Counted from the first letter of the stretch, positions 13,283-32,644 are shown. The stretch is 64,000 nucleotides of DNA from Nitrosopumilus sp. (GCA_965205675.1 OZ242186.1:1760001-1824000); one strand, 5' to 3'. Translations and numbers: made by a program. The notes: generated by a model not told the origin, from the sequence alone.

Positions 13283-13490
13283 CCATGTGAATTGTTTTTA
13301 TACATTTCCTCTCTTTCTATACATCAGGGCATGGCTTTCGCTAGAGAATGGTTTCAATCAAAAGATGGCAGACATGTATCCATACGAGACTATTCTCTCA
13401 ATGCTATCTTCATCCTAGTTAGGATTGTTCGCAGTTATTAGACGAGGCCTTGTCCCTCAATAATTACAACGCGACTTGCAGTCCTAACTA
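13283..13490 (-). ncRNA. Predicted bridge/seek RNA of the IS110 element
   Basis: Nested stems enclose GTTGTAATTAT and TCTAATAACT, exact matches to the two target flanks; second stem-loop contains donor-junction ATGGATA. Confidence 0.85.
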
Positions 13491-14477
13491 TAATTTTGTA
13501 CAAATTCTCTCCTCTCCTTTAACATCCAATAAATCACCCTCAGGATCTTTGATGCACCAGCTACTGCAGCTTTGGATGATCCTCTTTTCTTTTTAATGCG
13601 ATTGTAAAATTTTGTAATGTCACTATCCTTGGCATGAATTGCATGAGTGTGTATGCATTCTGTTAGAACCCATCTCAATGTCATGCTTCCCCTTTTTGTT
13701 ATTCTGCCATGGTGTATTGTATCTGCAGAGTTTCTAACTGATGGTACAACTCCTGCATATGCACACAGTTTGTGAGAATCATTGAATCTCTCAATATCTG
13801 CAATCTCTGATGCAATGACAAGCGAAGAATAATGCCCAATTCCCGGAATCGAGTTTATCAAAATTGCATCAGGATTAACTTTTACAGCAGCATACACTTT
13901 GGAATTAATCTCTGCAATCTGTAAATTAAGGTGGCTGATTTGTTGCAAGAATCCGTCTATTCTGTAATCTCCTAGTGCCTTGAGTCTTCTGTTGTATGTT
14001 TCAGTGAATGTAACTCCTGGAATCCTGATTCCTTCCTGTAACAATATTCCATGAACTGAATTCTTGACAGATGTTCTCCATTGGATTAGTTTTTTCCTAT
14101 ATCTTACAAGCTGTCTTTGTTGTACAATCTTTTTGTCTGGAACATAACATGTGGCAATGTATCCTCCTCGTAAAAGATCTGCCAATATCTTGGCATCAAT
14201 CTTGTCTGTTTTCTTTTTTGATGTAGCAATTGCCTTTGTCAAATATGGGTTTGAGAGTGTGACGTTTTTGTATCCCAAAGTATCTGTGAGAAATCGATAC
14301 GTGTCATACCAGACTGATGAGGATTCCATTACAATATTTGCAGAAATTGGTATTTTTGCAAAATGCTTCCTGATAGATTCATGAGTGTTATCCACTTTGT
14401 CATTTTGTAATACTTTGCCTGCATCATCCATTTATTACTTGAAGAAACTTCTTGTGCAGGTCAATGCCCACAAACAT
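13484..14477 (-). pseudogene. IS110 DEDD recombinase/transposase, frameshifted near codon 15
   Basis: MFVGIDLHKKFLQV is out of frame with MDDAG...; KTDKIDA, IPGIG, YAGVVPSVRNSA, ITKRG motifs. Confidence 0.9.
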
Positions 14478-14632: not shown

Positions 14633-15845
14633 TGAGACTTGGGCATAATTAATTCTGATTTTTGAGTTATCTCTCAAATTATTCAAATGGAAAAAGCTAA
14701 AGATCAGCACATCGTGATATCATTGAAATGATAAAAGATGTACAAATCCCTAGGCAACATAAGGTATCAATCATTTCTTATTGGCGTGTTACATTTGGTT
14801 CATCATGCAGTCTGATATTTGTAGCGGCGATAGGTATCAATCATTTCTTATTGGCGTGTTACATTTGGTAGGGACATTATCTTTGTATGAAGATGTACTC
14901 AGAGTCGGTAGACCATACGTGTACTCCACCATTCAGATGATGCAATTGTGCATCGCAGGTCTTGGATGAGAATATCCAGCAACAATACACTATACTATTT
15001 TCTTTTGATTAAATCAACCAATCACAAATTACTCAAGGTTTGTAAATTACAGTAAATCCCAAACCGTAGAACAATTGACAGGCGATTTGAATTTCTACCA
15101 ATTAGTGACATGATTAGTACAATGGGCAACAAATTCATCTCAGATGGATTGGTGGAAAATATTTTAGTACTAGTTGATAGTTCCATGCTAAAAGCTGCTG
15201 AGTCCAGTATAGCAAAAATCAGACATTACACAAAATCGTTTGCCAATTGCAGGAATTGATACTGGTGCCAAAATAGGGTTTCTCCAAATACAAGGGTTGG
15301 ATATTTGGATACAAACTACACATAAGTTGTTCGGCTGGTAAATTGATTGTTCCTTTATCTGCTGATGTCTCAACTGCAAATGTTCATGACAATAAGATGT
15401 ATTGTGAAATAATCAAATCACTTGCAGGGCTGATAAGTAATGTCTTGTGTGATCCAGCATATGATGATGGTTCACTGTACCAGTTTAGCAGCAAGAAAAA
15501 TCTGAGATTGATTACTTCAGTTAAGATATACCCATCAACTCCTCCAGAGAGAATCAAACTTGCAGATTTTTATCATTCTGTGATTGGTCAAGAGTTGTAT
15601 TTGCAAAGAAAAATTTCAATTGAGCCCCTATTTCAAATATTCAAAGATGCATTTGATATCAGAACAGTCCCTGTGAAAGGATCAAATAACGTAGAATCAT
15701 TTGTGCTGATCTGCGTGCTTGTTTATCAGTTGGCAGTGTATTACAATTGTATTACTGGAGTAGAGAATCCAAGAATTGTCAAAAGAATGCTTTGTTGTTG
15801 AAATAATTTAAAACTATTTTTGTAAATCACTATGCCCAAATCTCA
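14633..15845 (+). mobile_element. DDE_Tnp_1-type IS (IS982/IS1182-like, family unresolved), degraded
   Basis: TIR TGAGACTTGGGCAT/ATGCCCAAATCTCA, ~5-6 bp TTTAT duplication, GYKLH, TANVHD, DPAYD, SIEPLF motifs. Confidence 0.85.
14762..14869. repeat. 38-bp perfect direct repeat pair separated by 32 bp
   Basis: AGGTATCAATCATTTCTTATTGGCGTGTTACATTTGGT at 14762-14799 and 14832-14869. Confidence 0.95.
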
Positions 15846-16080: not shown

Positions 16081-17028
16081 TTATTTCGTATTTCCTAGTT
16101 CTGCTAACATTGCAGATAATTGAATTTCAGAATTTGCTCCAACTAATACTCTATAATCATACTTTGCAATTATCTCTAAGATATCTGCTAATTTATCATG
16201 TTTTGATTCGAATACTGCAGAGTTTAAATATTTTAGAAAATCTGATTCAGACATTCCATAAACCTTGATTAATTCAATCATCTTTTCTCTGGCTTTTGCA
16301 ACTTTACCTGACAGTGCAATTTTTAAAACTTCATCAACATCACTAGTTTTTGTCAGCCCTGCTGATGATTTTACATTCTCTTCTGTAATTTCACCAATAC
16401 TTGCAGTTGCCTGCATTAGATTAATTGCATGTCTCAAGTCTCCTTCAGAATAATCATAAATTGCTTTGAGACCTTTTTTATCAGTTTTGACTTTTTCTTT
16501 TTTGGCAATAACTTCTAATCTACTAATAACATCTTCTTCAGAGACTGTGGTAAACTTGAAAGTGGCACATCTACTCTGAATTGGATCTATAATTTTTGAA
16601 ATATTATTAGCTATGAAAATAAATCTACAAATTTTTGCAGTATCTTCTATAATTCGTCTTAGTGCCGTTTGTGCATCTCCTGTCATCTCATCGGCTTCAT
16701 CTAAAATGATAATTTTGAATGGAACATCGGTCATTCCTGCAAATCTTGAGAATTTTTTTACCTTTTCTCTGACCATCCCAATCCCTCTTTCATCAGATGC
16801 GTTGAGCTCTAATGTGTAGTCTTTGGAATAATCTCCTAAAATTTGTCTTGCAATACATAGTGCAGTAGTTGTCTTCCCCACTCCTGCAGAACCTGAGAAC
16901 ATCAAATGTGGCATATCTGTTGGATCTTTGATTAGAGCCTCTAAACTTCCAATAATTTCAGTTTGGTTTACAACTTCAGAAAGCTTGACTGGTCGATACT
17001 TTTCTACCCACATACCAGTTTCAGCCAT
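16081..17028 (-). CDS. rfcS: Replication factor C small subunit
   Basis: WVEKYRP, GVGKT, ELNASD, DEAD, SRC motifs; start placed at MAETG. Confidence 0.95.
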   Translation of the reverse strand: MAETGMWVEKYRPVKLSEVVNQTEIIGSLEALIKDPTDMPHLMFSGSAGVGKTTTALCIARQILGDYSKDYTLELNASDERGIGMVREKVKKFSRFAGMTDVPFKIIILDEADEMTGDAQTALRRIIEDTAKICRFIFIANNISKIIDPIQSRCATFKFTTVSEEDVISRLEVIAKKEKVKTDKKGLKAIYDYSEGDLRHAINLMQATASIGEITEENVKSSAGLTKTSDVDEVLKIALSGKVAKAREKMIELIKVYGMSESDFLKYLNSAVFESKHDKLADILEIIAKYDYRVLVGANSEIQLSAMLAELGNTK

Positions 17029-17118
17029 GTGTATTAAATGCAAAACCCCACTAATAAATCCGAATTGGTTATTGTCATATACCATATCTTAAAATCAAAA
17101 TTTGTCATAATCACTTGC

Positions 17119-17215
17119 GATCAGCCTGAAATTAATTAGGATCAATTGATCTCACTAAATTGTTAACAGAATTGATCGATCCGATACTTGAGGATCTAAA
17201 TCAGAAAAAGTGATC
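17119..17215. promoter_or_regulatory. GATC cluster in the divergent rfcS / gins-mcm promoter
   Basis: GATC at 17119, 17140, 17148, 17174, 17178, 17193, 17212. Confidence 0.6.
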
Positions 17216-17219
17216 TCAG

Positions 17220-17750
17220 ATGGAAATAGATAAAATAGAAAAAGTGCATTCAATTGGATACCGCCTAAAAGATGCTAAGGTTACTGTAAACAAGGATTTC
17301 AAGTATAATGTGGCTGGAATGAAAATTGAAGGCACGCAAGGTGATACTAATAACATGCCTCAATGGGTAGGAAAGATTCTCTCTGATAATGAAATAGGAA
17401 CCCTTGATTCTCCAGATATGATAACTCAATTAAAACAAGCATTATCAAAAGAAAAAATGGTTGGTGAATATCAAATATCTACACTTGATCCTCATTTTTA
17501 CATCAAGCTAAAAGAATCTATGAAGGATCTAAACAATAATGATTTTGATAAGGTGGAGAGTATGATGTTGGAATTATTTAGAATGCGAAGAGGCAAGCTA
17601 GTGAAGATTGCAGATTCCATCAAACTAAATTCCGAACTTTACAACAAACTAACTGTTGAGGAAAATGTTTTCTATAAAACAATTTATGATAACAGTAAAG
17701 AATTTGAAAAACAGATAAGAGGAGATCAAAATAAGCACAGCTCAAGCTAG
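17220..17750 (+). CDS. GINS subunit (Gins23-like)
   Basis: Directly upstream of mcm; PQW, LDPHFY, RRGKLVKIA, LTVEE motifs. Confidence 0.8.
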   Translation: MEIDKIEKVHSIGYRLKDAKVTVNKDFKYNVAGMKIEGTQGDTNNMPQWVGKILSDNEIGTLDSPDMITQLKQALSKEKMVGEYQISTLDPHFYIKLKESMKDLNNNDFDKVESMMLELFRMRRGKLVKIADSIKLNSELYNKLTVEENVFYKTIYDNSKEFEKQIRGDQNKHSSS

Positions 17751-19818
17751 CACATTTACTGATTCTGCTTTATCTGATAAAGTAAAAGAATTCTTAATTC
17801 AATTCAAAGACAGAGATGGCAATTACAATTATGTAGATGCAATCGATGAGATGATGCCAAAGAATGCAAAATATATCATAGTTGATTATAATGATTTGGT
17901 TATAGAACCCCAAATTGAAGCAATGTTTTCAGAAAATCCTGATAGAATTTTTGATGCATTTGCAAGAGCAATCAAAGAAGCATTACAAACAAGATTTCCT
18001 GATTATGCAGAAAAAATTAAAGATGAAATTCGTGTAAGACTAATCAATTTTCCATTAGAGCGCAGTCTAAGACAAATTAATGCTGAAACAATTGGAAAAA
18101 TTACCAGTGTCTCTGGAATGGTGGTAAGAGCATCTGAAGTAAAGCCTCTTGCAAAAGAACTAGTTTTTGTGTGCCCTGATGAACATCCAACCAAAGTAAT
18201 TCAACTAAAAGGAATGGATGTAAAAATCCCTATAGTTTGTGATAATCCTAGTTGTAAACATAGAGATTTTGAATTAAAACCCGAAGCAAGCAAGTTTATT
18301 GATTTTCAGATACTAAGACTGCAAGAACTTCCAGAGGACTTACCTCCTGGACAATTACCTCACTATATCGATGTTACCACTAGACAGGATTTAGTAGATA
18401 ATTCAAGGCCAGGGGACAGAATCATACTCACAGGTATGGTCAGAGTAGAACAAGAATCAGTTGCAGGAATCCAAAGAGGCCACAGTGGATTATACCGATT
18501 AAGAATTGAAGGAAATAATATTGAATTTCTTAGTGGACGTGGTTCTAAGACTGATAGAAAAATTGGTAGAGAAGAAATTTCTCCTGAAGAAGAAAAACTA
18601 ATCAGATCACTTGGTCAAAGTTCTGATGTGTATCAAAGATTGATAGATTCTTTTGCACCTCACATTCAAGGTCAAGTATTAATCAAAGAAGCTATTTTAT
18701 TACTAATTGTTGGTTCTAATCAAAAATTACTTGGTGATGGAAGTAAGATTAGGGGAGACATCAACATATTTCTTGTAGGAGATCCTGGTACTGCAAAATC
18801 TGAGATGCTAAAGTTTTGTGCAAGAATTGCACCCAGAGGTTTGTATACTTCTGGTAGAGGTTCTACTGCTGCCGGTCTTACAGCTGCTGTAGTTAGAGAC
18901 AAGACCGGGATTATGATGTTAGAAGCTGGTGCAGTTGTGTTAGGTGATCAAGGTTTGGTAAGTATAGACGAATTCGATAAGATGAAACCCGAGGACCGAA
19001 GTGCATTGCACGAAGTTATGGAACAACAATCTGCAAGTATTGCAAAAGGTGGTATTGTAGCTACGCTAAATGCACGAACTTCAATTCTAGCTGCTGCAAA
19101 TCCAATGTATGGAAAATATGATCCTTTCAAAAATATTACAGAAAATGTCAATTTGCCAATTCCATTGCTTACAAGATTTGACTTGATATTTGTTGTAAGA
19201 GATATTCCAACCAAAGAAAGAGATACACAAATTGCAAAACATATCATTCAAAGAAATACTTCAGTAGGTACTGATAAAAAATCTGTAATTGAAGTTGATT
19301 TACTGACAAAATACCTATCCTATGCAAAACGTGGGGAACCTGAACTAACACAAGAGGCTGAGGCCAAAATTCTTGATTATTATCTCCAAATGAGAAATGT
19401 TGAATCAGAAGAAATGATTACAGTTACACCTAGACAACTTGAAGGTATAATCCGACTTTCAACTGCTAGGGCAAGATTACTTATGAAAGATAAGGTAGAA
19501 GAGGAAGATGCTGAGCGTGCAATCTTCCTAATTCAGAGCATGCTACAAGACGCTGGAGTGGATGTCAATACTGGTAAAGTAGATCTGGGTGTGTTACAAG
19601 GCAAGCCAAGAAGTGAAGTTTCAAAGATGCAATTATTCATGGATATACTCAAAGGTATTGAAGGTGATAACAAGATCCCAGCAGAAGAAAAGGCCTTTGT
19701 CAGAGAATTAGAAAAGAGTGAGAAATTCACCGAGGAGGAGGCAAGAAATTACATTAGAAGAATGCTTAGAGAAGCATCTATTTATGAATCAAAACCCGGT
19801 CATTATAACCGCGTATGA
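17731..19818 (+). CDS. mcm: MCM replicative helicase (frame extends 40 codons upstream of the first ATG, to an ATA)
   Basis: GDPGTAKS, IDEFDKM, AAANP, TRFD motifs; upstream STAQASTFTDSALSDKVKEFL in frame. Confidence 0.95.
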   Translation: MSTAQASTFTDSALSDKVKEFLIQFKDRDGNYNYVDAIDEMMPKNAKYIIVDYNDLVIEPQIEAMFSENPDRIFDAFARAIKEALQTRFPDYAEKIKDEIRVRLINFPLERSLRQINAETIGKITSVSGMVVRASEVKPLAKELVFVCPDEHPTKVIQLKGMDVKIPIVCDNPSCKHRDFELKPEASKFIDFQILRLQELPEDLPPGQLPHYIDVTTRQDLVDNSRPGDRIILTGMVRVEQESVAGIQRGHSGLYRLRIEGNNIEFLSGRGSKTDRKIGREEISPEEEKLIRSLGQSSDVYQRLIDSFAPHIQGQVLIKEAILLLIVGSNQKLLGDGSKIRGDINIFLVGDPGTAKSEMLKFCARIAPRGLYTSGRGSTAAGLTAAVVRDKTGIMMLEAGAVVLGDQGLVSIDEFDKMKPEDRSALHEVMEQQSASIAKGGIVATLNARTSILAAANPMYGKYDPFKNITENVNLPIPLLTRFDLIFVVRDIPTKERDTQIAKHIIQRNTSVGTDKKSVIEVDLLTKYLSYAKRGEPELTQEAEAKILDYYLQMRNVESEEMITVTPRQLEGIIRLSTARARLLMKDKVEEEDAERAIFLIQSMLQDAGVDVNTGKVDLGVLQGKPRSEVSKMQLFMDILKGIEGDNKIPAEEKAFVRELEKSEKFTEEEARNYIRRMLREASIYESKPGHYNRV

Positions 19819-21941
19819 AAATAGAGAAATTAAAACTTCCAGCATCTGCAATTGATTTTCTAAAATCTCAAGGTTTTGAAAAATTATATCCCCCACAAGC
19901 TGATAGTGTAAAGTCGGGTTTACTGGATGGAAAAAGTATTCTAGTGTCTGCCCCTACTGCTAGTGGAAAAACTTTGATTGCAATGCTTGCAATGATGAGT
20001 TTTATATCAAAGAATAAAGGCAAGGTGGTTTACCTTAGTCCATTAAGAGCATTAGCTGCTGAAAAATTTACAGAATTTAAAAAATTAGAAAAAGTTGCTT
20101 TAGGAAATAAAGTAAAGGTTGCAATATCTACTGGTGATTTTGAAAATATTGAAAAAAACCTAGAGAAAAACAATGTGTTAATTTTAACAAATGAAAAAAT
20201 GGATTCCATGATTAGACATGGTGCTGAATGGGTTGATGAAATTGGATTGGTAATCTCTGATGAAGTGCATTTGATTGGAGATGAAAGTAGGGGTCCAACA
20301 CTTGAAATGATTTTAACTCAACTCAAACTTTTGGAAACAAAACCTCAGATTGTAGGTCTTAGTGCAACAATTACAAATTCTGATGAGATTGCAGATTGGC
20401 TTGAATGTAAATTGATAAAAAATGACTGGAGACCTGTTCCATTATCTGAAGGTGTATGTGATGAAGGTCAAGTTACAATGAGTGATGGTAAAACTTTTGA
20501 AGTTAAACGTAGTTTGATGGATACACCAATTGATTTAGGCGTACAATCTGTAAACCAAGGAGGTCAATCCCTAGTGTTTGCAGAGACTAGAACTCGCTCA
20601 AAATCCCTTGCAACAAAAGCATCAGATGCAATATTTAAAAAATTAGAAAAAAAAGAAATCGCTGAACTAGAAAAAATATCAAAAAAATTATTATCAGAAA
20701 ATGAACACACTGAACTAGTCAAGACACTAGCATTGTTGGTAAAAAAAGGAGTCGCATTTCATCATGCAGGACTAAATCAAAAATGTCGAGAGACGATAGA
20801 GAAAGAATTTCGTAAGGGTACAATCAAACTATTATCTTCTACCCCAACTTTGGCTGCGGGTGTTAATCTTCCAGCAAGACGAGTTGTAATATCTAATGTT
20901 AATAGGTATAATGCTAAAGTTGGTGCAAACAGACCAATTAGTATTTTAGAATACAAACAGCTTTGTGGAAGAGCAGGAAGACCACAGTACGATGATTATG
21001 GAGAATCAATTATTGTTGGAAATGGCAATACTGAAGATTTAACAGAATACTACATCAACGGCGAACCTGAGGTAATCGAATCCAAAATTACTGATGACAA
21101 GTCTTTGCGAACTCATATTCTAAGTGTTATAGTTACTCATCCTGGAATTAAAAAAGAAGAAATTTTAGAATTCTTTTTACAAACATTAGGTGGATTACAA
21201 TCACGAAAACCCACGATAAAATTTGCAATTGATATATCATTACGTTTTCTTTCAAGTAAATTCTTAATAATTAAAAAAGGTGAAAGATATGCCGCCACAG
21301 AATTTGGCAAGAAAACATCAATGCTGTATATTGATCCATTAACTGCAACATACTTTAGAGATTCAATTGAAAATGTGTCCCAAGAAAGAAAACACACTTT
21401 TGGATTCTTGCATTTAATCACAAATTGTGAAGAATTTTTTCCGAAATTCTCACTGCGACAAAAAGACTATGAAACTGCAAGTTTGATGATAGAGAACAAT
21501 TCATCACAACTTTTGGAATCTATCTCCGAGTATGACTGCTCAAGAAGTCTTTTAGCTCTACAATCTTGGATTACAGAATCTACTGAATTATCTCTCTCTG
21601 ATAGCCTTAAAATTGAATCTGGAGACATGCACAGAATGACTGAGAATGCCAATTGGTTATCATACTGTCTCAGAGAGATATCAAAACATGTAGAGAGGGC
21701 AGACTTGCTTGAAGAATTGAGTGATTTGAGAACTAGAATAGTTTATGGAATCAGAGAAGAACTCTTAGATTTAATTCACGTCAAAGGTATTGGAAGGGTT
21801 AGAGCACGGATTCTCTTCAAACACGGAATCAAGAATCTAGATGATTTGAGGAAGATCCCAGTGTATAAATTAGCAGAAATTGATAAAATTGGCTCAACCA
21901 TTGCAGATAACATAAAGACAGAGTTACGAAGAGTTAGTTAA
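19815..21941 (+). CDS. hel308: Ski2-like helicase Hel308
   Basis: APTASGKT, DEVH, FHHAGL, TLAAGVNLPA, GRAGRP, C-terminal HhH. Confidence 0.93.
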   Translation: MKIEKLKLPASAIDFLKSQGFEKLYPPQADSVKSGLLDGKSILVSAPTASGKTLIAMLAMMSFISKNKGKVVYLSPLRALAAEKFTEFKKLEKVALGNKVKVAISTGDFENIEKNLEKNNVLILTNEKMDSMIRHGAEWVDEIGLVISDEVHLIGDESRGPTLEMILTQLKLLETKPQIVGLSATITNSDEIADWLECKLIKNDWRPVPLSEGVCDEGQVTMSDGKTFEVKRSLMDTPIDLGVQSVNQGGQSLVFAETRTRSKSLATKASDAIFKKLEKKEIAELEKISKKLLSENEHTELVKTLALLVKKGVAFHHAGLNQKCRETIEKEFRKGTIKLLSSTPTLAAGVNLPARRVVISNVNRYNAKVGANRPISILEYKQLCGRAGRPQYDDYGESIIVGNGNTEDLTEYYINGEPEVIESKITDDKSLRTHILSVIVTHPGIKKEEILEFFLQTLGGLQSRKPTIKFAIDISLRFLSSKFLIIKKGERYAATEFGKKTSMLYIDPLTATYFRDSIENVSQERKHTFGFLHLITNCEEFFPKFSLRQKDYETASLMIENNSSQLLESISEYDCSRSLLALQSWITESTELSLSDSLKIESGDMHRMTENANWLSYCLREISKHVERADLLEELSDLRTRIVYGIREELLDLIHVKGIGRVRARILFKHGIKNLDDLRKIPVYKLAEIDKIGSTIADNIKTELRRVS

Positions 21942-30260: not shown

Positions 30261-31319
30261 ATGGATAATATTACAATTGATTCATCACTTAGAACTGTAG
30301 AATGGAAAAACAACAAAGTGATAATGATTGAACAGACCAAATTGCCAAATAAGCTGGTATTTGTAGAATATGATGATTTTAACCAAGTTGCAAATGCAAT
30401 CAAAACTCTGATTGTTAGAGGCGCACCTGCAATTGGAGTCTCTGGAGCGTTTGGATTGGCTTTAGCTGCCTTACAAAGTAAAGCAACATCAAAAGAAGAA
30501 TTATTTTCTGATTTAGAAGATGCAAAAAAAATTCTTTTTGCAACAAGACCAACAGCAATAAACTTGGGATGGGGATTAGAAAAAATCATGAATGTTGCAA
30601 AGACTGGAAACACAGTTGAACAAATTAGAGAACTAATAATTTCTACTGCAAAAAAGATGGCAGATGAAGATATTGAAATAAACAAAGCTATAGGAAAGAA
30701 TGGTTCTATTCTTTTTGATGATAATGACACTATAATGACTCATTGTAATGCTGGTGCGTTAGCTACAGTTGCATATGGAACAGCACTTGGTGTAATAAGA
30801 GCAACAAGAGAGAGTGGAAAAAATATTAAAGTTATAGCAACAGAAACTAGACCAATTCAACAAGGTTCCAGATTGACAGCATTTGAACTAAAACATGATG
30901 GTTTTGATGTTAGTCTAATTCCGGACACTGCTGTAGGATATTCTATGGCAAACGGATTAGTGAATAAGATAGTGGTTGGGGCAGATAGAATTGTGAAAAC
31001 TGGTCATGTGTTTAATAAAATTGGAACATATCAAGTAGCTATGATGGCCAAACAACATGGAATTCCATTTTATGTTGCAGCACCATTATCCACAATTGAT
31101 ATAAAAACAAAAGCTGAAGATGTGGTTATTGAGATGCGTAAAGGATCTGAAGTTACAGGTATTGGAGAGAGAAAGACGGCTCCTGATGATATTGATGTGA
31201 TTAACCCTGCCTTTGATATGACTCCTCCAGAGCTAATTTCTGGGATTATAACTGAAAAAGGTGTTACTATAGCACCTTATGAAGAATCAATTCTAAAATT
31301 ATTTGAAGCTAATAATTAG
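30261..31319 (+). CDS. mtnA: Methylthioribose-1-phosphate isomerase
   Basis: VRGAPAIG, RPTAINL, THCNAGALAT, ETRP, NKIGTY. Confidence 0.95.
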   Translation: MDNITIDSSLRTVEWKNNKVIMIEQTKLPNKLVFVEYDDFNQVANAIKTLIVRGAPAIGVSGAFGLALAALQSKATSKEELFSDLEDAKKILFATRPTAINLGWGLEKIMNVAKTGNTVEQIRELIISTAKKMADEDIEINKAIGKNGSILFDDNDTIMTHCNAGALATVAYGTALGVIRATRESGKNIKVIATETRPIQQGSRLTAFELKHDGFDVSLIPDTAVGYSMANGLVNKIVVGADRIVKTGHVFNKIGTYQVAMMAKQHGIPFYVAAPLSTIDIKTKAEDVVIEMRKGSEVTGIGERKTAPDDIDVINPAFDMTPPELISGIITEKGVTIAPYEESILKLFEANN

Positions 31320-31355
31320 AAAGTTTTTATTGTTTTTCAAACTGTCATTTACAAT

Positions 31356-31994
31356 ATGAGTACTGTTTCTGCACAAGCAATTGAAGAATCTCTTAAACAA
31401 TGCATGGATCCTGAAGTTCCACTAAATATTGTAGAAATGGGGTTAATTTATGGAATTAATGTTACTGAAAATAATGATGTTAATATCAAAATGACCATGA
31501 CTACACAAGGTTGTCCATTACATGAAACTCTAGTTGAGGATGCAACAAGATTTGCTAAAAAAGTTCCTGGAGTAAATAATGTGAAAATAGATATTGTATG
31601 GGAACCTGTGTGGTCCATGGATAAGATGACTGAAGAGGGTAAATTAAAAATCAAGAATATGGGTGCTACTATGAATACGCCTGCACCAGTTAATTATGAA
31701 ACCACACTACCTCAAGGCGTTGGAAAACTAGTACAACAAGAAGATGGTTCAATGGTACTTGCAAATGAACATGAACAAGGATTTATGGTTAATCAAGCAA
31801 TTGTTGATTTCTGGAAATCGTGTAATGGTCAACGTAAAATTACAGATCTAGTTGAAGTGTTTGCCCAACAAACGGGATTACAAAGAAAACAAATTGAAAA
31901 AGAAGTAATGCAACTATTACAACAATTACGTGATGCTGGATTAATTGCAATTGCAGGTCAATCTGATACCCCAAATGTAGAATTTAAAAAATAA
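31356..31994 (+). CDS. Fe-S assembly DUF59/SufT domain fused to PqqD-like domain
   Basis: DPEV..NIV.MGL, TTQGCP, WEPVW; C-terminal wHTH-like region. Confidence 0.8.
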   Translation: MSTVSAQAIEESLKQCMDPEVPLNIVEMGLIYGINVTENNDVNIKMTMTTQGCPLHETLVEDATRFAKKVPGVNNVKIDIVWEPVWSMDKMTEEGKLKIKNMGATMNTPAPVNYETTLPQGVGKLVQQEDGSMVLANEHEQGFMVNQAIVDFWKSCNGQRKITDLVEVFAQQTGLQRKQIEKEVMQLLQQLRDAGLIAIAGQSDTPNVEFKK

Positions 31995-31996
31995 TT

Positions 31997-32644
31997 TTAA
32001 AAAATATAGTTTGAATTAGCACCATCAAAGTTTATTGTAACTCCTGAAAGATATTTTATGTTATTTTGAATTATTGATTTTACAAAGTTACCAATTTCTC
32101 CGGGTTCTCCTAATCTTTTCATGGGTAATGTTTTTTCATATTCTTTTACATTCTCTATTAATTCTTGAGTTCTATCTGTGTTTATAGGACCCGGCGCAAT
32201 GTTAATACAACTAATATTTTTTTGAGCATATTCCTTACTTAGTACTTTGAAAACTTCACTAAATGCAGCTCTATATGCTGATGAGATTATTAATTTTGAA
32301 TTTGGTTCTTTAATTACACTAGAACTAACTACAAAGATGTATCCACCATCATTAATTTTGATATTTTGGAGAATTGTGATAAATCCCAAAAATAATTGAT
32401 TATGATATATTTTCCAATCTTCTTCAGTAATTGTAAGAAATGGTTTAGGTTCAGGCCCACCTGTGTTTAAAATTAAAATATCTGTATGAGTATTTTTTTT
32501 TAAAAATTCTTTTACGCTATCTAAATTTGATGTATCAATGTCATTTTTTGATGTTGCTAAAACATCAATATCTAGTGTTTTTAGTGAATCGGATATAGCT
32601 TTTCCTATTCCTCTTGAACCTCCAAGAATAATCGCACCAGCCAT
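31997..32644 (-). CDS. SDR oxidoreductase
   Basis: GGSRGIG, NTGGP, PGPINT. Confidence 0.85.
   Translation of the reverse strand: MAGAIILGGSRGIGKAISDSLKTLDIDVLATSKNDIDTSNLDSVKEFLKKNTHTDILILNTGGPEPKPFLTITEEDWKIYHNQLFLGFITILQNIKINDGGYIFVVSSSVIKEPNSKLIISSAYRAAFSEVFKVLSKEYAQKNISCINIAPGPINTDRTQELIENVKEYEKTLPMKRLGEPGEIGNFVKSIIQNNIKYLSGVTINFDGANSNYIF

Follow-up and report, generated by a model that had tools for sequence, protein, structure and literature searches.

A conserved GATC-palindrome element upstream of the gins-mcm-hel308 operon in Nitrosopumilus and relatives as a candidate for methylation-dependent control of replisome genes

Introduction

Archaea lack cyclins and CDKs, and it is an open question by what means their cell cycle is ordered; the function of the orphan Dam-type methyltransferases that are conserved in several archaeal lineages is not known. 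A locus of Nitrosopumilus sp. (GCA_965205675.1, OZ242186.1) raises a question that touches both: what is the role of seven GATC sites crowded into 97 bp in front of the genes of the replicative helicase, in a genome that otherwise avoids this tetramer? It is the combination of four features, namely the rarity of GATC in the genome, the conservation of a Dam-type enzyme, the N6-methyladenine reported at GATC in relatives, and the conservation of the cluster itself, that leads us to infer methylation-state control of replisome gene transcription as the leading hypothesis. If so, the locus might provide the first example from archaea in which the methylation state of DNA switches replication genes. 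The element thereby offers a concrete and testable link between archaeal cell-cycle control and the orphan Dam enzymes, in the form of a single 100-bp target before the replicative helicase genes in hundreds of genomes of globally abundant nitrifiers.

Organization of the Locus

The window, that is, the whole stretch of 64,000 bp that was analyzed (positions 1,760,001–1,824,000 of a single 2,011,361-bp contig; 33.7% G+C), carries rfcS and, in divergent orientation, a gene for a GINS subunit followed by mcm and a hel308-type helicase gene (Table 1). These gene names had been proposed from the sequence alone and are right by Pfam. The start of rfcS at 17028 is kept in relatives (MAETGMW start; tblastn query start 1), and the intergenic region therefore extends from 17029 to 17219 (191 bp), with the GATC cluster occupying its gins-proximal half and the last site lying 4 nt from the gins ATG. 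Homologs of gins were found in 120 of 121 family genomes. Because gins overlaps mcm and mcm in turn overlaps hel308, a single promoter probably serves all three genes. Five relatives start mcm at an ATG that lies within the last codons of gins. The corresponding codon in this genome (17731–17733) is ATA, which may reflect a sequencing error, a recent mutation or the use of a non-canonical start. Starting instead at the first in-frame ATG (17851) would lose about 40 conserved N-terminal residues.

The region between the two divergent genes had been described in the sequence-only reading as a shared promoter. This description is right only in part: rfcS appears to possess a core promoter of its own on the minus strand, distinct from the GATC element. 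Its TATA-like box (17051–17058) is situated about 26 nt before the rfcS ATG within a conserved block, and is also present in relatives without the GATC element. According to Pfam searches, no transcription factor gene is linked to the locus within the 64-kb window. Just past rfcS lie an IS110-family transposase gene (13484–14431) and a DDE transposase fragment (15343–15801), and the conserved replication locus thus borders mobile DNA in this genome.

Table 1. Features of the rfcS–gins locus and the dam gene. Positions refer to the window except for dam, which is given in genome coordinates; GATC counts refer to 58 distinct aligned sequences.
Feature	Position	Strand	Evidence or conservation
rfcS, replication factor C small subunit	16081–17028	-	Pfam Rep_fac_C, AAA, RFC lid domains
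Conserved block with rfcS TATA-like box	17046–17068	-	In all family intergenic regions inspected
GATC site 1, GCGATCAGCCTG	17117–17128	.	GATC in 30/58
Palindrome 1, GATCAATTGATC, GATC sites 2 and 3	17140–17151	.	GATC in 58/58 and 54/58
AT-rich 22-nt spacer with TTGTTAAC-type box	17152–17173	+	Length invariant, sequence semi-conserved
Palindrome 2, GATCGATC plus C, GATC sites 4 and 5	17174–17182	.	GATC in 52/58 and 56/58
Conserved block GATACTTGAG, then GATC site 6 (17193–17196)	17183–17196	+	Site 6 GATC in 42/58
GTGATC, GATC site 7	17210–17215	+	GATC in 52/58; 4 nt before gins ATG
gins (GINS subunit), first gene of the operon	17220–17750	+	Pfam Sld5, E 3.8e-10
mcm	17731–19818	+	Pfam MCM, MCM_OB, MCM_lid; start from N-terminal comparison with relatives
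hel308-type helicase	19815–21941	+	Pfam DEAD, Helicase_C, Helicase_dom4_arc; overlaps mcm stop by 4 nt
dam, D12-class adenine methyltransferase, 286 aa	genome 294,589–295,335		PF02086, E 3.6e-65

GATC Density and Genomic Background

GATC is scarce in this organism. Its 6130 occurrences correspond to 0.305 per 100 bp, in line with the earlier rough estimate of well under one, and the observed/expected ratio of 0.64 (second-order Markov, whole genome) is the lowest among the 16 palindromic tetramers. The window itself contains 179 GATC in 64,000 bp, as against 243.6 ± 13.7 in dinucleotide shuffles, all 100 of which exceeded the real count. The seven sites that the sequence-only reading had noticed were all located, with starts at 17119, 17140, 17148, 17174, 17178, 17193, and 17212 (97 bp, 17119–17215). 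A genome-wide density scan, which that reading had proposed, identified them as the top cluster of the genome at about 17 times the background density; similar clusters are not common, and the runner-up independent clusters comprise five sites. The rfcS–gins intergenic region as a whole reaches 5.2 GATC per 100 bp, compared to 1.43 in the second-densest intergenic region (based on crude ORF calls).

Might such a cluster have arisen by chance, or represent the neutral leftovers of a mobile element? Two transposase genes are found just beyond rfcS, and random placement of the 6130 sites produced a maximum of at least seven in 11 of 2000 trials (0.55%), so that a density of this kind is not astronomically rare. 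However, the cluster recurs at the same place in hundreds of genomes from 20 genera while a reversed control pattern has no match at all (see below), and this conservation refutes an accidental origin, which we consider extremely improbable.

Anatomy and Conservation of the Element

Four of the seven sites are arranged in two palindromes, GATCAATTGATC and GATCGATC, whose centers are 32 bp apart and which are separated by 22 nt; the AT-rich spacer between them contains a TTGTTAAC-type box that is a candidate gins TATA box. The half-site TTGATC/GATCAA has three exact occurrences in the element. Downstream of palindrome 2 follows the block GATACTTGAG, which is retained in standard and variant elements as well as in second copies (see below), then site 6 (GGATC) and, after about 15 variable nucleotides, GTGATC. 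Site 1 is limited to a long (~191 bp) form of the intergenic region and missing from a ~122-bp form. The long form adds about 70 bp (17069–17116 here) with conserved blocks, for example TTAAAATCAAAAT, that are likewise missing from the short form of other genera.

Conservation of the cluster was among the points on which the sequence-only reading had let its own proposal stand or fall. A strict pattern consisting of GATCAATTGATC, 20–26 nt, and GATCGATC precedes gins in 306 of 401 family genomes representing 20 of 27 genera (177 of 246 when only high-quality family genomes are considered), in most cases as the only copy of the genome. The reversed pattern, which served as control, had 0 matches in any genome. 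At the class level, 67 of 91 family genomes contained the strict pattern, as opposed to 0 of 59 genomes from 12 other families. These figures under-count the element, since the genera without an exact match include degenerate, recognizable copies (loci L074, L065, and L064); the loci examined from genera g23, g24, g28, and g33 contained no trace of it. The tallies include 3–8 genomes flagged as unpublished, and the conclusions are the same without them; none of the sequences used here comes from these genomes.

Within the genus, 20 of 22 loci with both genes carry six to nine GATC in the ~191-bp intergenic region, and among 66 family loci with both genes (24 genera sampled) 61 have at least four GATC in the 112 nt before gins. 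The element is kept even where GINS identity is only 39–49%, and in loci of 50–63% G+C. Exceptions are the five loci L024, L025, L063, L076, and L080. In one of these, L063 (genome G098), the rfcS–gins intergenic region contains an expanded tandem array of ~10-nt units and most GATC have decayed; the spacer sequence is retained, so the element can still be recognized as a natural "GATC-less" version.

The spacer measures 22 nt in all matches listed, the exceptions being overlapping alternates that involve a third GATC after palindrome 2. Two protein sites held in register should show just this combination of an invariant spacer length and a drifting sequence, which would point to such an arrangement here. 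In the alignment of 58 distinct sequences, the mean majority frequency is 0.911 for GATC columns vs. 0.769 for other columns. Conservation within the element peaks at GATC but is not confined to it. Lineage-specific extra GATC in the aligned region number 17 over the 58 sequences, where ~15 would be expected from background density; the remodeled variant described below excepted, the numbers therefore do not indicate that GATC count as such is selected for, and this line of argument was dropped. The pattern of conservation suggests that the element is under purifying selection, and we regard it as very likely that it constitutes a cis-regulatory module of the helicase operon.

Remodeled Variant and Second Copies

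A remodeled form with 8–9 GATC is carried by 4 of 121 genus genomes (G007, G052, G335, and G380; loci L015, L049, and L097–L101). One of these genomes, G052, contains two variant copies ~15 kb apart. The variant aligns to the reverse complement of the 38-bp core with scores of 15–17 vs. 4–5 for the direct alignment; for the standard elements of four other genera the direct alignment is better. The core is bounded by the 8-bp inverted repeats GATCAATT and AATTGATC. These alignments are compatible with an inversion of the core in the distant past, and the apparent inversion argues that the core acts at the DNA level and that either orientation is tolerated.

Second copies of the module are found elsewhere in five relatives (G303, G147, G078, G399, and G021; loci L086, L088, L089, L090, and L092). 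In three of them, a small ORF without Pfam match starts 33–34 nt past palindrome 2, as compared to 38 nt for gins. The fourth is likewise followed by a small ORF without Pfam match, with its start 98 nt past palindrome 2, and the fifth has an HD-domain gene ~150 nt downstream. This arrangement suggests that the second copies behave as a portable promoter module, and mobile or variable regions may have borrowed the helicase promoter of their host.

Dam-Type Methyltransferase and GATC Methylation

Whether a Dam-like methyltransferase is present had been left by the sequence-only reading as something to be checked. The enzyme is encoded here (Table 1), and PF02086 matches over the cut-off (~288 aa) were obtained in 119 of 121 family genomes; elsewhere in the order, strong matches occur in 2 of 16 genomes from other families. 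The dam gene directly adjoins amoA, which encodes ammonia monooxygenase subunit A, with an IS66 transposase opposite (genome 293,780–295,386; L001 692–2298), and no nuclease ORF lies beside it. Searches with positive controls detected no member of the DpnII, MutH, or SeqA families in this 99.9%-complete genome; for the SeqA profile (PF03925), which had no match in this genome, the control was E. coli. The avoidance of GATC throughout the genome coexists with the lack of any detected nuclease family of the DpnII or MutH type.

Methylation of GATC in relatives, to which the sequence-only reading had referred, is indeed published. In detail, 9446 of 9618 GATC positions (98.2%) carry m6A according to SMRT sequencing in a Candidatus Nitrosoarchaeum genome bin, the methyltransferase of which is not part of a restriction system (PMC6329791), GATC methylation exceeds 99% in Ca. 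Nitrosomarinus catalina and a homologous enzyme is found in N. maritimus (review PMC11033074), and marine archaeal bins show GATC methylation ratios of 19–99% with two exceptions (PMC8919816). The GATC specificity of the Dam enzyme studied here is inferred from these relatives only. By the same analogy, the m6A of the relatives and the conservation of Dam make it very probable that GATC is methylated in this organism too.

Dam also occurs in family genomes without the element (G018, G002, G046, and G051) and outside the family (G038), and is therefore not sufficient for the element to be present. Co-occurrence of Dam and the element amounts in essence to a single event at the level of the clade, and its statistical weight is small.

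Promoter Position and RNA-Level Signals

Across the genome, a TATA signal is located at −30 to −24 from start codons, which indicates mostly leaderless first genes and agrees with the place of the rfcS box. At gins these positions read GAGGATC and do not match the TATA profile of the genome, and a leaderless gins promoter is therefore unlikely. Owing to this poor fit, the core-promoter assignment of the element is uncertain, and two candidates can be proposed. In the first, the AT-rich spacer box would serve as TATA box with a predicted start near 17186–17192. Palindrome 1 would then be situated just upstream of BRE/TATA, palindrome 2 would separate TATA from the start, the start would coincide with site 6, and site 7 would fall inside a leader of ~30 nt. 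In the second, the GATACTTGAG/GGATC block would itself be the promoter and transcription would begin close to the ATG, which fits the 33–34-nt spacing in three of the second copies. With either candidate, the GATC sites would sit where basal factors or a repressor are predicted to act. No useful start-site maps for Nitrosopumilus were found in the literature searched.

The GTGATC preceding gins is perfectly complementary to the 3′ end of the 16S rRNA as read from this genome, and site 7 may therefore double as a Shine–Dalgarno-like site. Such considerations lead to the alternative that the element is mostly the 5′ UTR of the gins mRNA, containing leader structure or ribosome-binding signals, or else a small RNA gene. 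Besides the 16S complementarity 4 nt before the ATG, a leader is likely from the departure of the gins upstream region from the leaderless TATA position, and GATCC (17178–17182) and GGATC (17192–17196) could pair. However, only 4 of 1254 genes in this genome have GTGATC before their start codon, the conserved units are perfect DNA palindromes, and the core has apparently been inverted in the variant, a change that an RNA would not tolerate. Moreover, no Rfam family reached its threshold (the best match, to a C/D-box family on the minus strand, scored 25.8 bits vs. a gathering score of 50), and the folding energies of both strands are ordinary when compared to shuffled sequences (z −0.67 and −0.20). 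A function at the RNA level is thus regarded as improbable. A C/D-box small RNA within the long intergenic form was considered separately and rejected, as the Rfam match is below threshold and no convincing boxes were apparent by eye.

Relation to the Replication Origin

An origin-associated element had been offered as the second option of the sequence-only reading. The sole Cdc6_C-bearing gene of the genome (orc1/cdc6) is located at 30,991–32,199, 265 kb away from the GATC element. In its upstream region (~30,670–30,990; L082 871–1193), copies of a 23-nt repeat surround an AT-rich stretch; two of them are exact and direct, a third is weaker, and one is inverted. Inverted repeats around an AT-rich stretch beside orc1/cdc6 represent the classic layout of an archaeal origin, and by its sequence features this region is the probable replication origin. 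Skews of GC, AT, and gene strand gave no clear origin signal. In complete genomes of the same genus, the element is separated from orc1/cdc6 by ~233 kb (G012), ~211 kb (G146), ~276 kb (G021), and ~286 kb (G153). Since this distance is nearly constant, the locus should be replicated at a reproducible and fairly early time in S phase.

The element itself shares with archaeal origins that it is a unique, repeat-containing intergenic element adjoining replication genes, and could be imagined to serve as a second origin, as a site where helicase is loaded, or in some other role associated with an origin. In bacteria that possess Dam, oriC is marked by GATC clusters, and second copies of the element reside in variable regions of some relatives, one of them near a ParB-like gene. 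Yet the origin recognition boxes and the AT-rich stretch that were found upstream of orc1/cdc6 are absent at the element, and the whole region 17029–17219 contains no origin-type repeats, only the GATC palindromes. In many genera, the intergenic region of ~122 bp is made up of the rfcS promoter and the element, without an AT-rich unwinding stretch, and the 33–34 nt to the downstream start codon in three of the five second copies are promoter-like. As the single orc1/cdc6 with its flanking repeats is 265 kb off here and 0.21–0.29 Mb in the four other genomes, the suggestion of an origin-associated element was not borne out, and we rate it as very improbable.

Proposed Function

We give about an even chance to the reading that the element is a promoter/operator module of gins-mcm-hel308 at which protein binding depends on GATC methylation. 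The module would drive the helicase operon and perhaps influence the divergent rfcS as well. In this model, the two palindromes flank the AT-rich box, two further GATC lie near the probable start and in GTGATC, and every GATC would be a target of the conserved orphan Dam-type adenine methyltransferase of the family. The palindromes might be occupied by the basal factors or by a DNA-binding protein that acts as a dimer or tetramer, with an affinity set by whether the GATC sites are methylated on both strands, on one or on neither. Each passing fork would leave the promoter hemimethylated and, with the locus 0.2–0.3 Mb from the origin, could switch transcription of the helicase genes, the expression of which would thereby be tied to the replication state. 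A more far-reaching version, which we consider possible but tentative and place below an even chance, is an epigenetic replication-coupled switch, in which an archaeal reader of hemimethylated GATC acts at the Dam-methylated promoter and times expression of the GINS–MCM operon. This version would add an independently arisen counterpart of Dam/SeqA or CcrM/GcrA that has been kept throughout the history of the family.

The main rival is an operator that is blind to methylation: the palindromes would bind an ordinary transcription factor, GATC would be its recognition sequence, and Dam would be irrelevant or tolerated. Palindromic operators by TATA boxes are the usual layout of archaeal repressor sites. 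The palindromes and their invariant 22-nt spacing are seen directly; they would flank the TATA box if the spacer box plays that role. Furthermore, the flanks of the GATC sites are conserved family-wide (AATT between sites, T or C after, and the recurring TTGATC half-site), the non-GATC core positions are also strongly conserved (0.77), and the spacing is fixed. Extra GATC are no commoner than background, some Dam-bearing family genomes do without the element, and the SeqA and MutH families are absent, so that no known reader of hemimethylated GATC was found. Other observations speak against indifference to methylation. If Dam is active as in the relatives analyzed by SMRT, each palindrome would carry four N6-methyladenines in the major groove and become hemimethylated after each fork passage, and a factor that reads GATC could hardly be indifferent to this. 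GATC is the most avoided palindromic tetramer of the genome and yet the most conserved part of the element, and the remodeled variant alters the non-GATC sequence while keeping its 8–9 GATC.

Also against an ordinary operator, no regulon was found, the motif being present in no other intergenic region and at no other replication gene. No other intergenic region exceeds 1.43 GATC per 100 bp, and GATC clusters are lacking upstream of dam and of orc1/cdc6. Other exact matches to the palindromes, which had been considered as possible members of a regulon and were rejected, lie near a gene for an EgtD-like methyltransferase, purK or IS66 transposases, or inside genes. Weighing both sides, we judge a methylation-blind operator to be somewhat unlikely. 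Even if methylation should prove irrelevant, few non-coding elements of these genomes are as conserved as this one, and it would provide a handle on a regulator of archaeal replisome genes.

Comparison with Known Systems

The closest functional analogs of the methylation-dependent module proposed here may be the dnaA promoter of E. coli, which is under Dam/SeqA control, and the promoters that depend on CcrM/GcrA in Caulobacter. In E. coli, the GATC clusters of the dnaA promoter and of oriC are read by Dam together with SeqA and undergo sequestration after replication. The Nitrosopumilus element has in common with them the dense GATC, at a density of that order, in the control region of a replication-essential gene and an orphan Dam-family enzyme, and fork passage would again give a readable hemimethylated state. 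In contrast, its promoter is of the TBP/TFB type, no SeqA or MutH was found, it is not at the origin, and GATC is depleted throughout the genome; moreover, the sites in E. coli are single and loosely phased, whereas here two fixed palindromes lie 22 nt apart.

In Caulobacter, GcrA acts at methylation-dependent cell-cycle promoters, the activity of which depends on the replication-dependent methylation state. The likeness consists in a clade-wide orphan adenine methyltransferase whose target motif is found in the putative promoter of a replication gene. However, methyltransferase class and motif are different, and the element is essentially single-copy without a regulon. We know of no GcrA-like reader in archaea.

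A third comparison is offered by the phase-variation switches pap (Lrp) and agn43 (OxyR), where two to three GATC are included in regulator sites by the promoter and where binding and methylation are mutually exclusive. The position of GATC within presumed regulator-binding sites next to a promoter is similar, but these switches control surface structures in a heritable ON/OFF manner, whereas the element described here belongs to the core replisome, is family-wide, and shows nothing that suggests bistability. The roles of Dam as well as CcrM and GANTC are mentioned in the review cited above (PMC11033074).

Among archaea, aCcr1 boxes and TFB2-dependent promoters time cell-cycle genes in Sulfolobus, where Gins23 is cyclically expressed, as reported in the accessible part of a preprint (bioRxiv 10.64898/2026.09.06.749720). 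These are archaeal cis-elements too, with two or three copies per promoter, but of another motif and another lineage and serving a multi-gene regulon; no link to methylation is described in that part of the text. The accessible part of a 2024 review (PMC7617429) calls archaeal cell-cycle control unclear, and the word "methylation" is absent from it. No published description of the element was found in the full-text literature searched, which covers few subscription journals.

Other GATC-Rich Sequences in the Genome

The two next-densest GATC clusters proved to be unrelated to the element, one being located within a large periplasmic-binding-protein-like gene and the other beside an IS66 transposase. 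In addition, a repeat of ~26 nt that contains two GATC 4 nt apart is present at no fewer than 10 places in the genome, ~50 nt from ORFs of ~155 aa (positions 254947, 386071, 744999, 977792, 1513513, 1541047, and 1695537; reverse-complement copies at 300738, 442722, and 1099477). These repeats are probably the ends of an insertion-sequence family, and they are the reason for the GATC peaks observed at fixed distances from some start codons.
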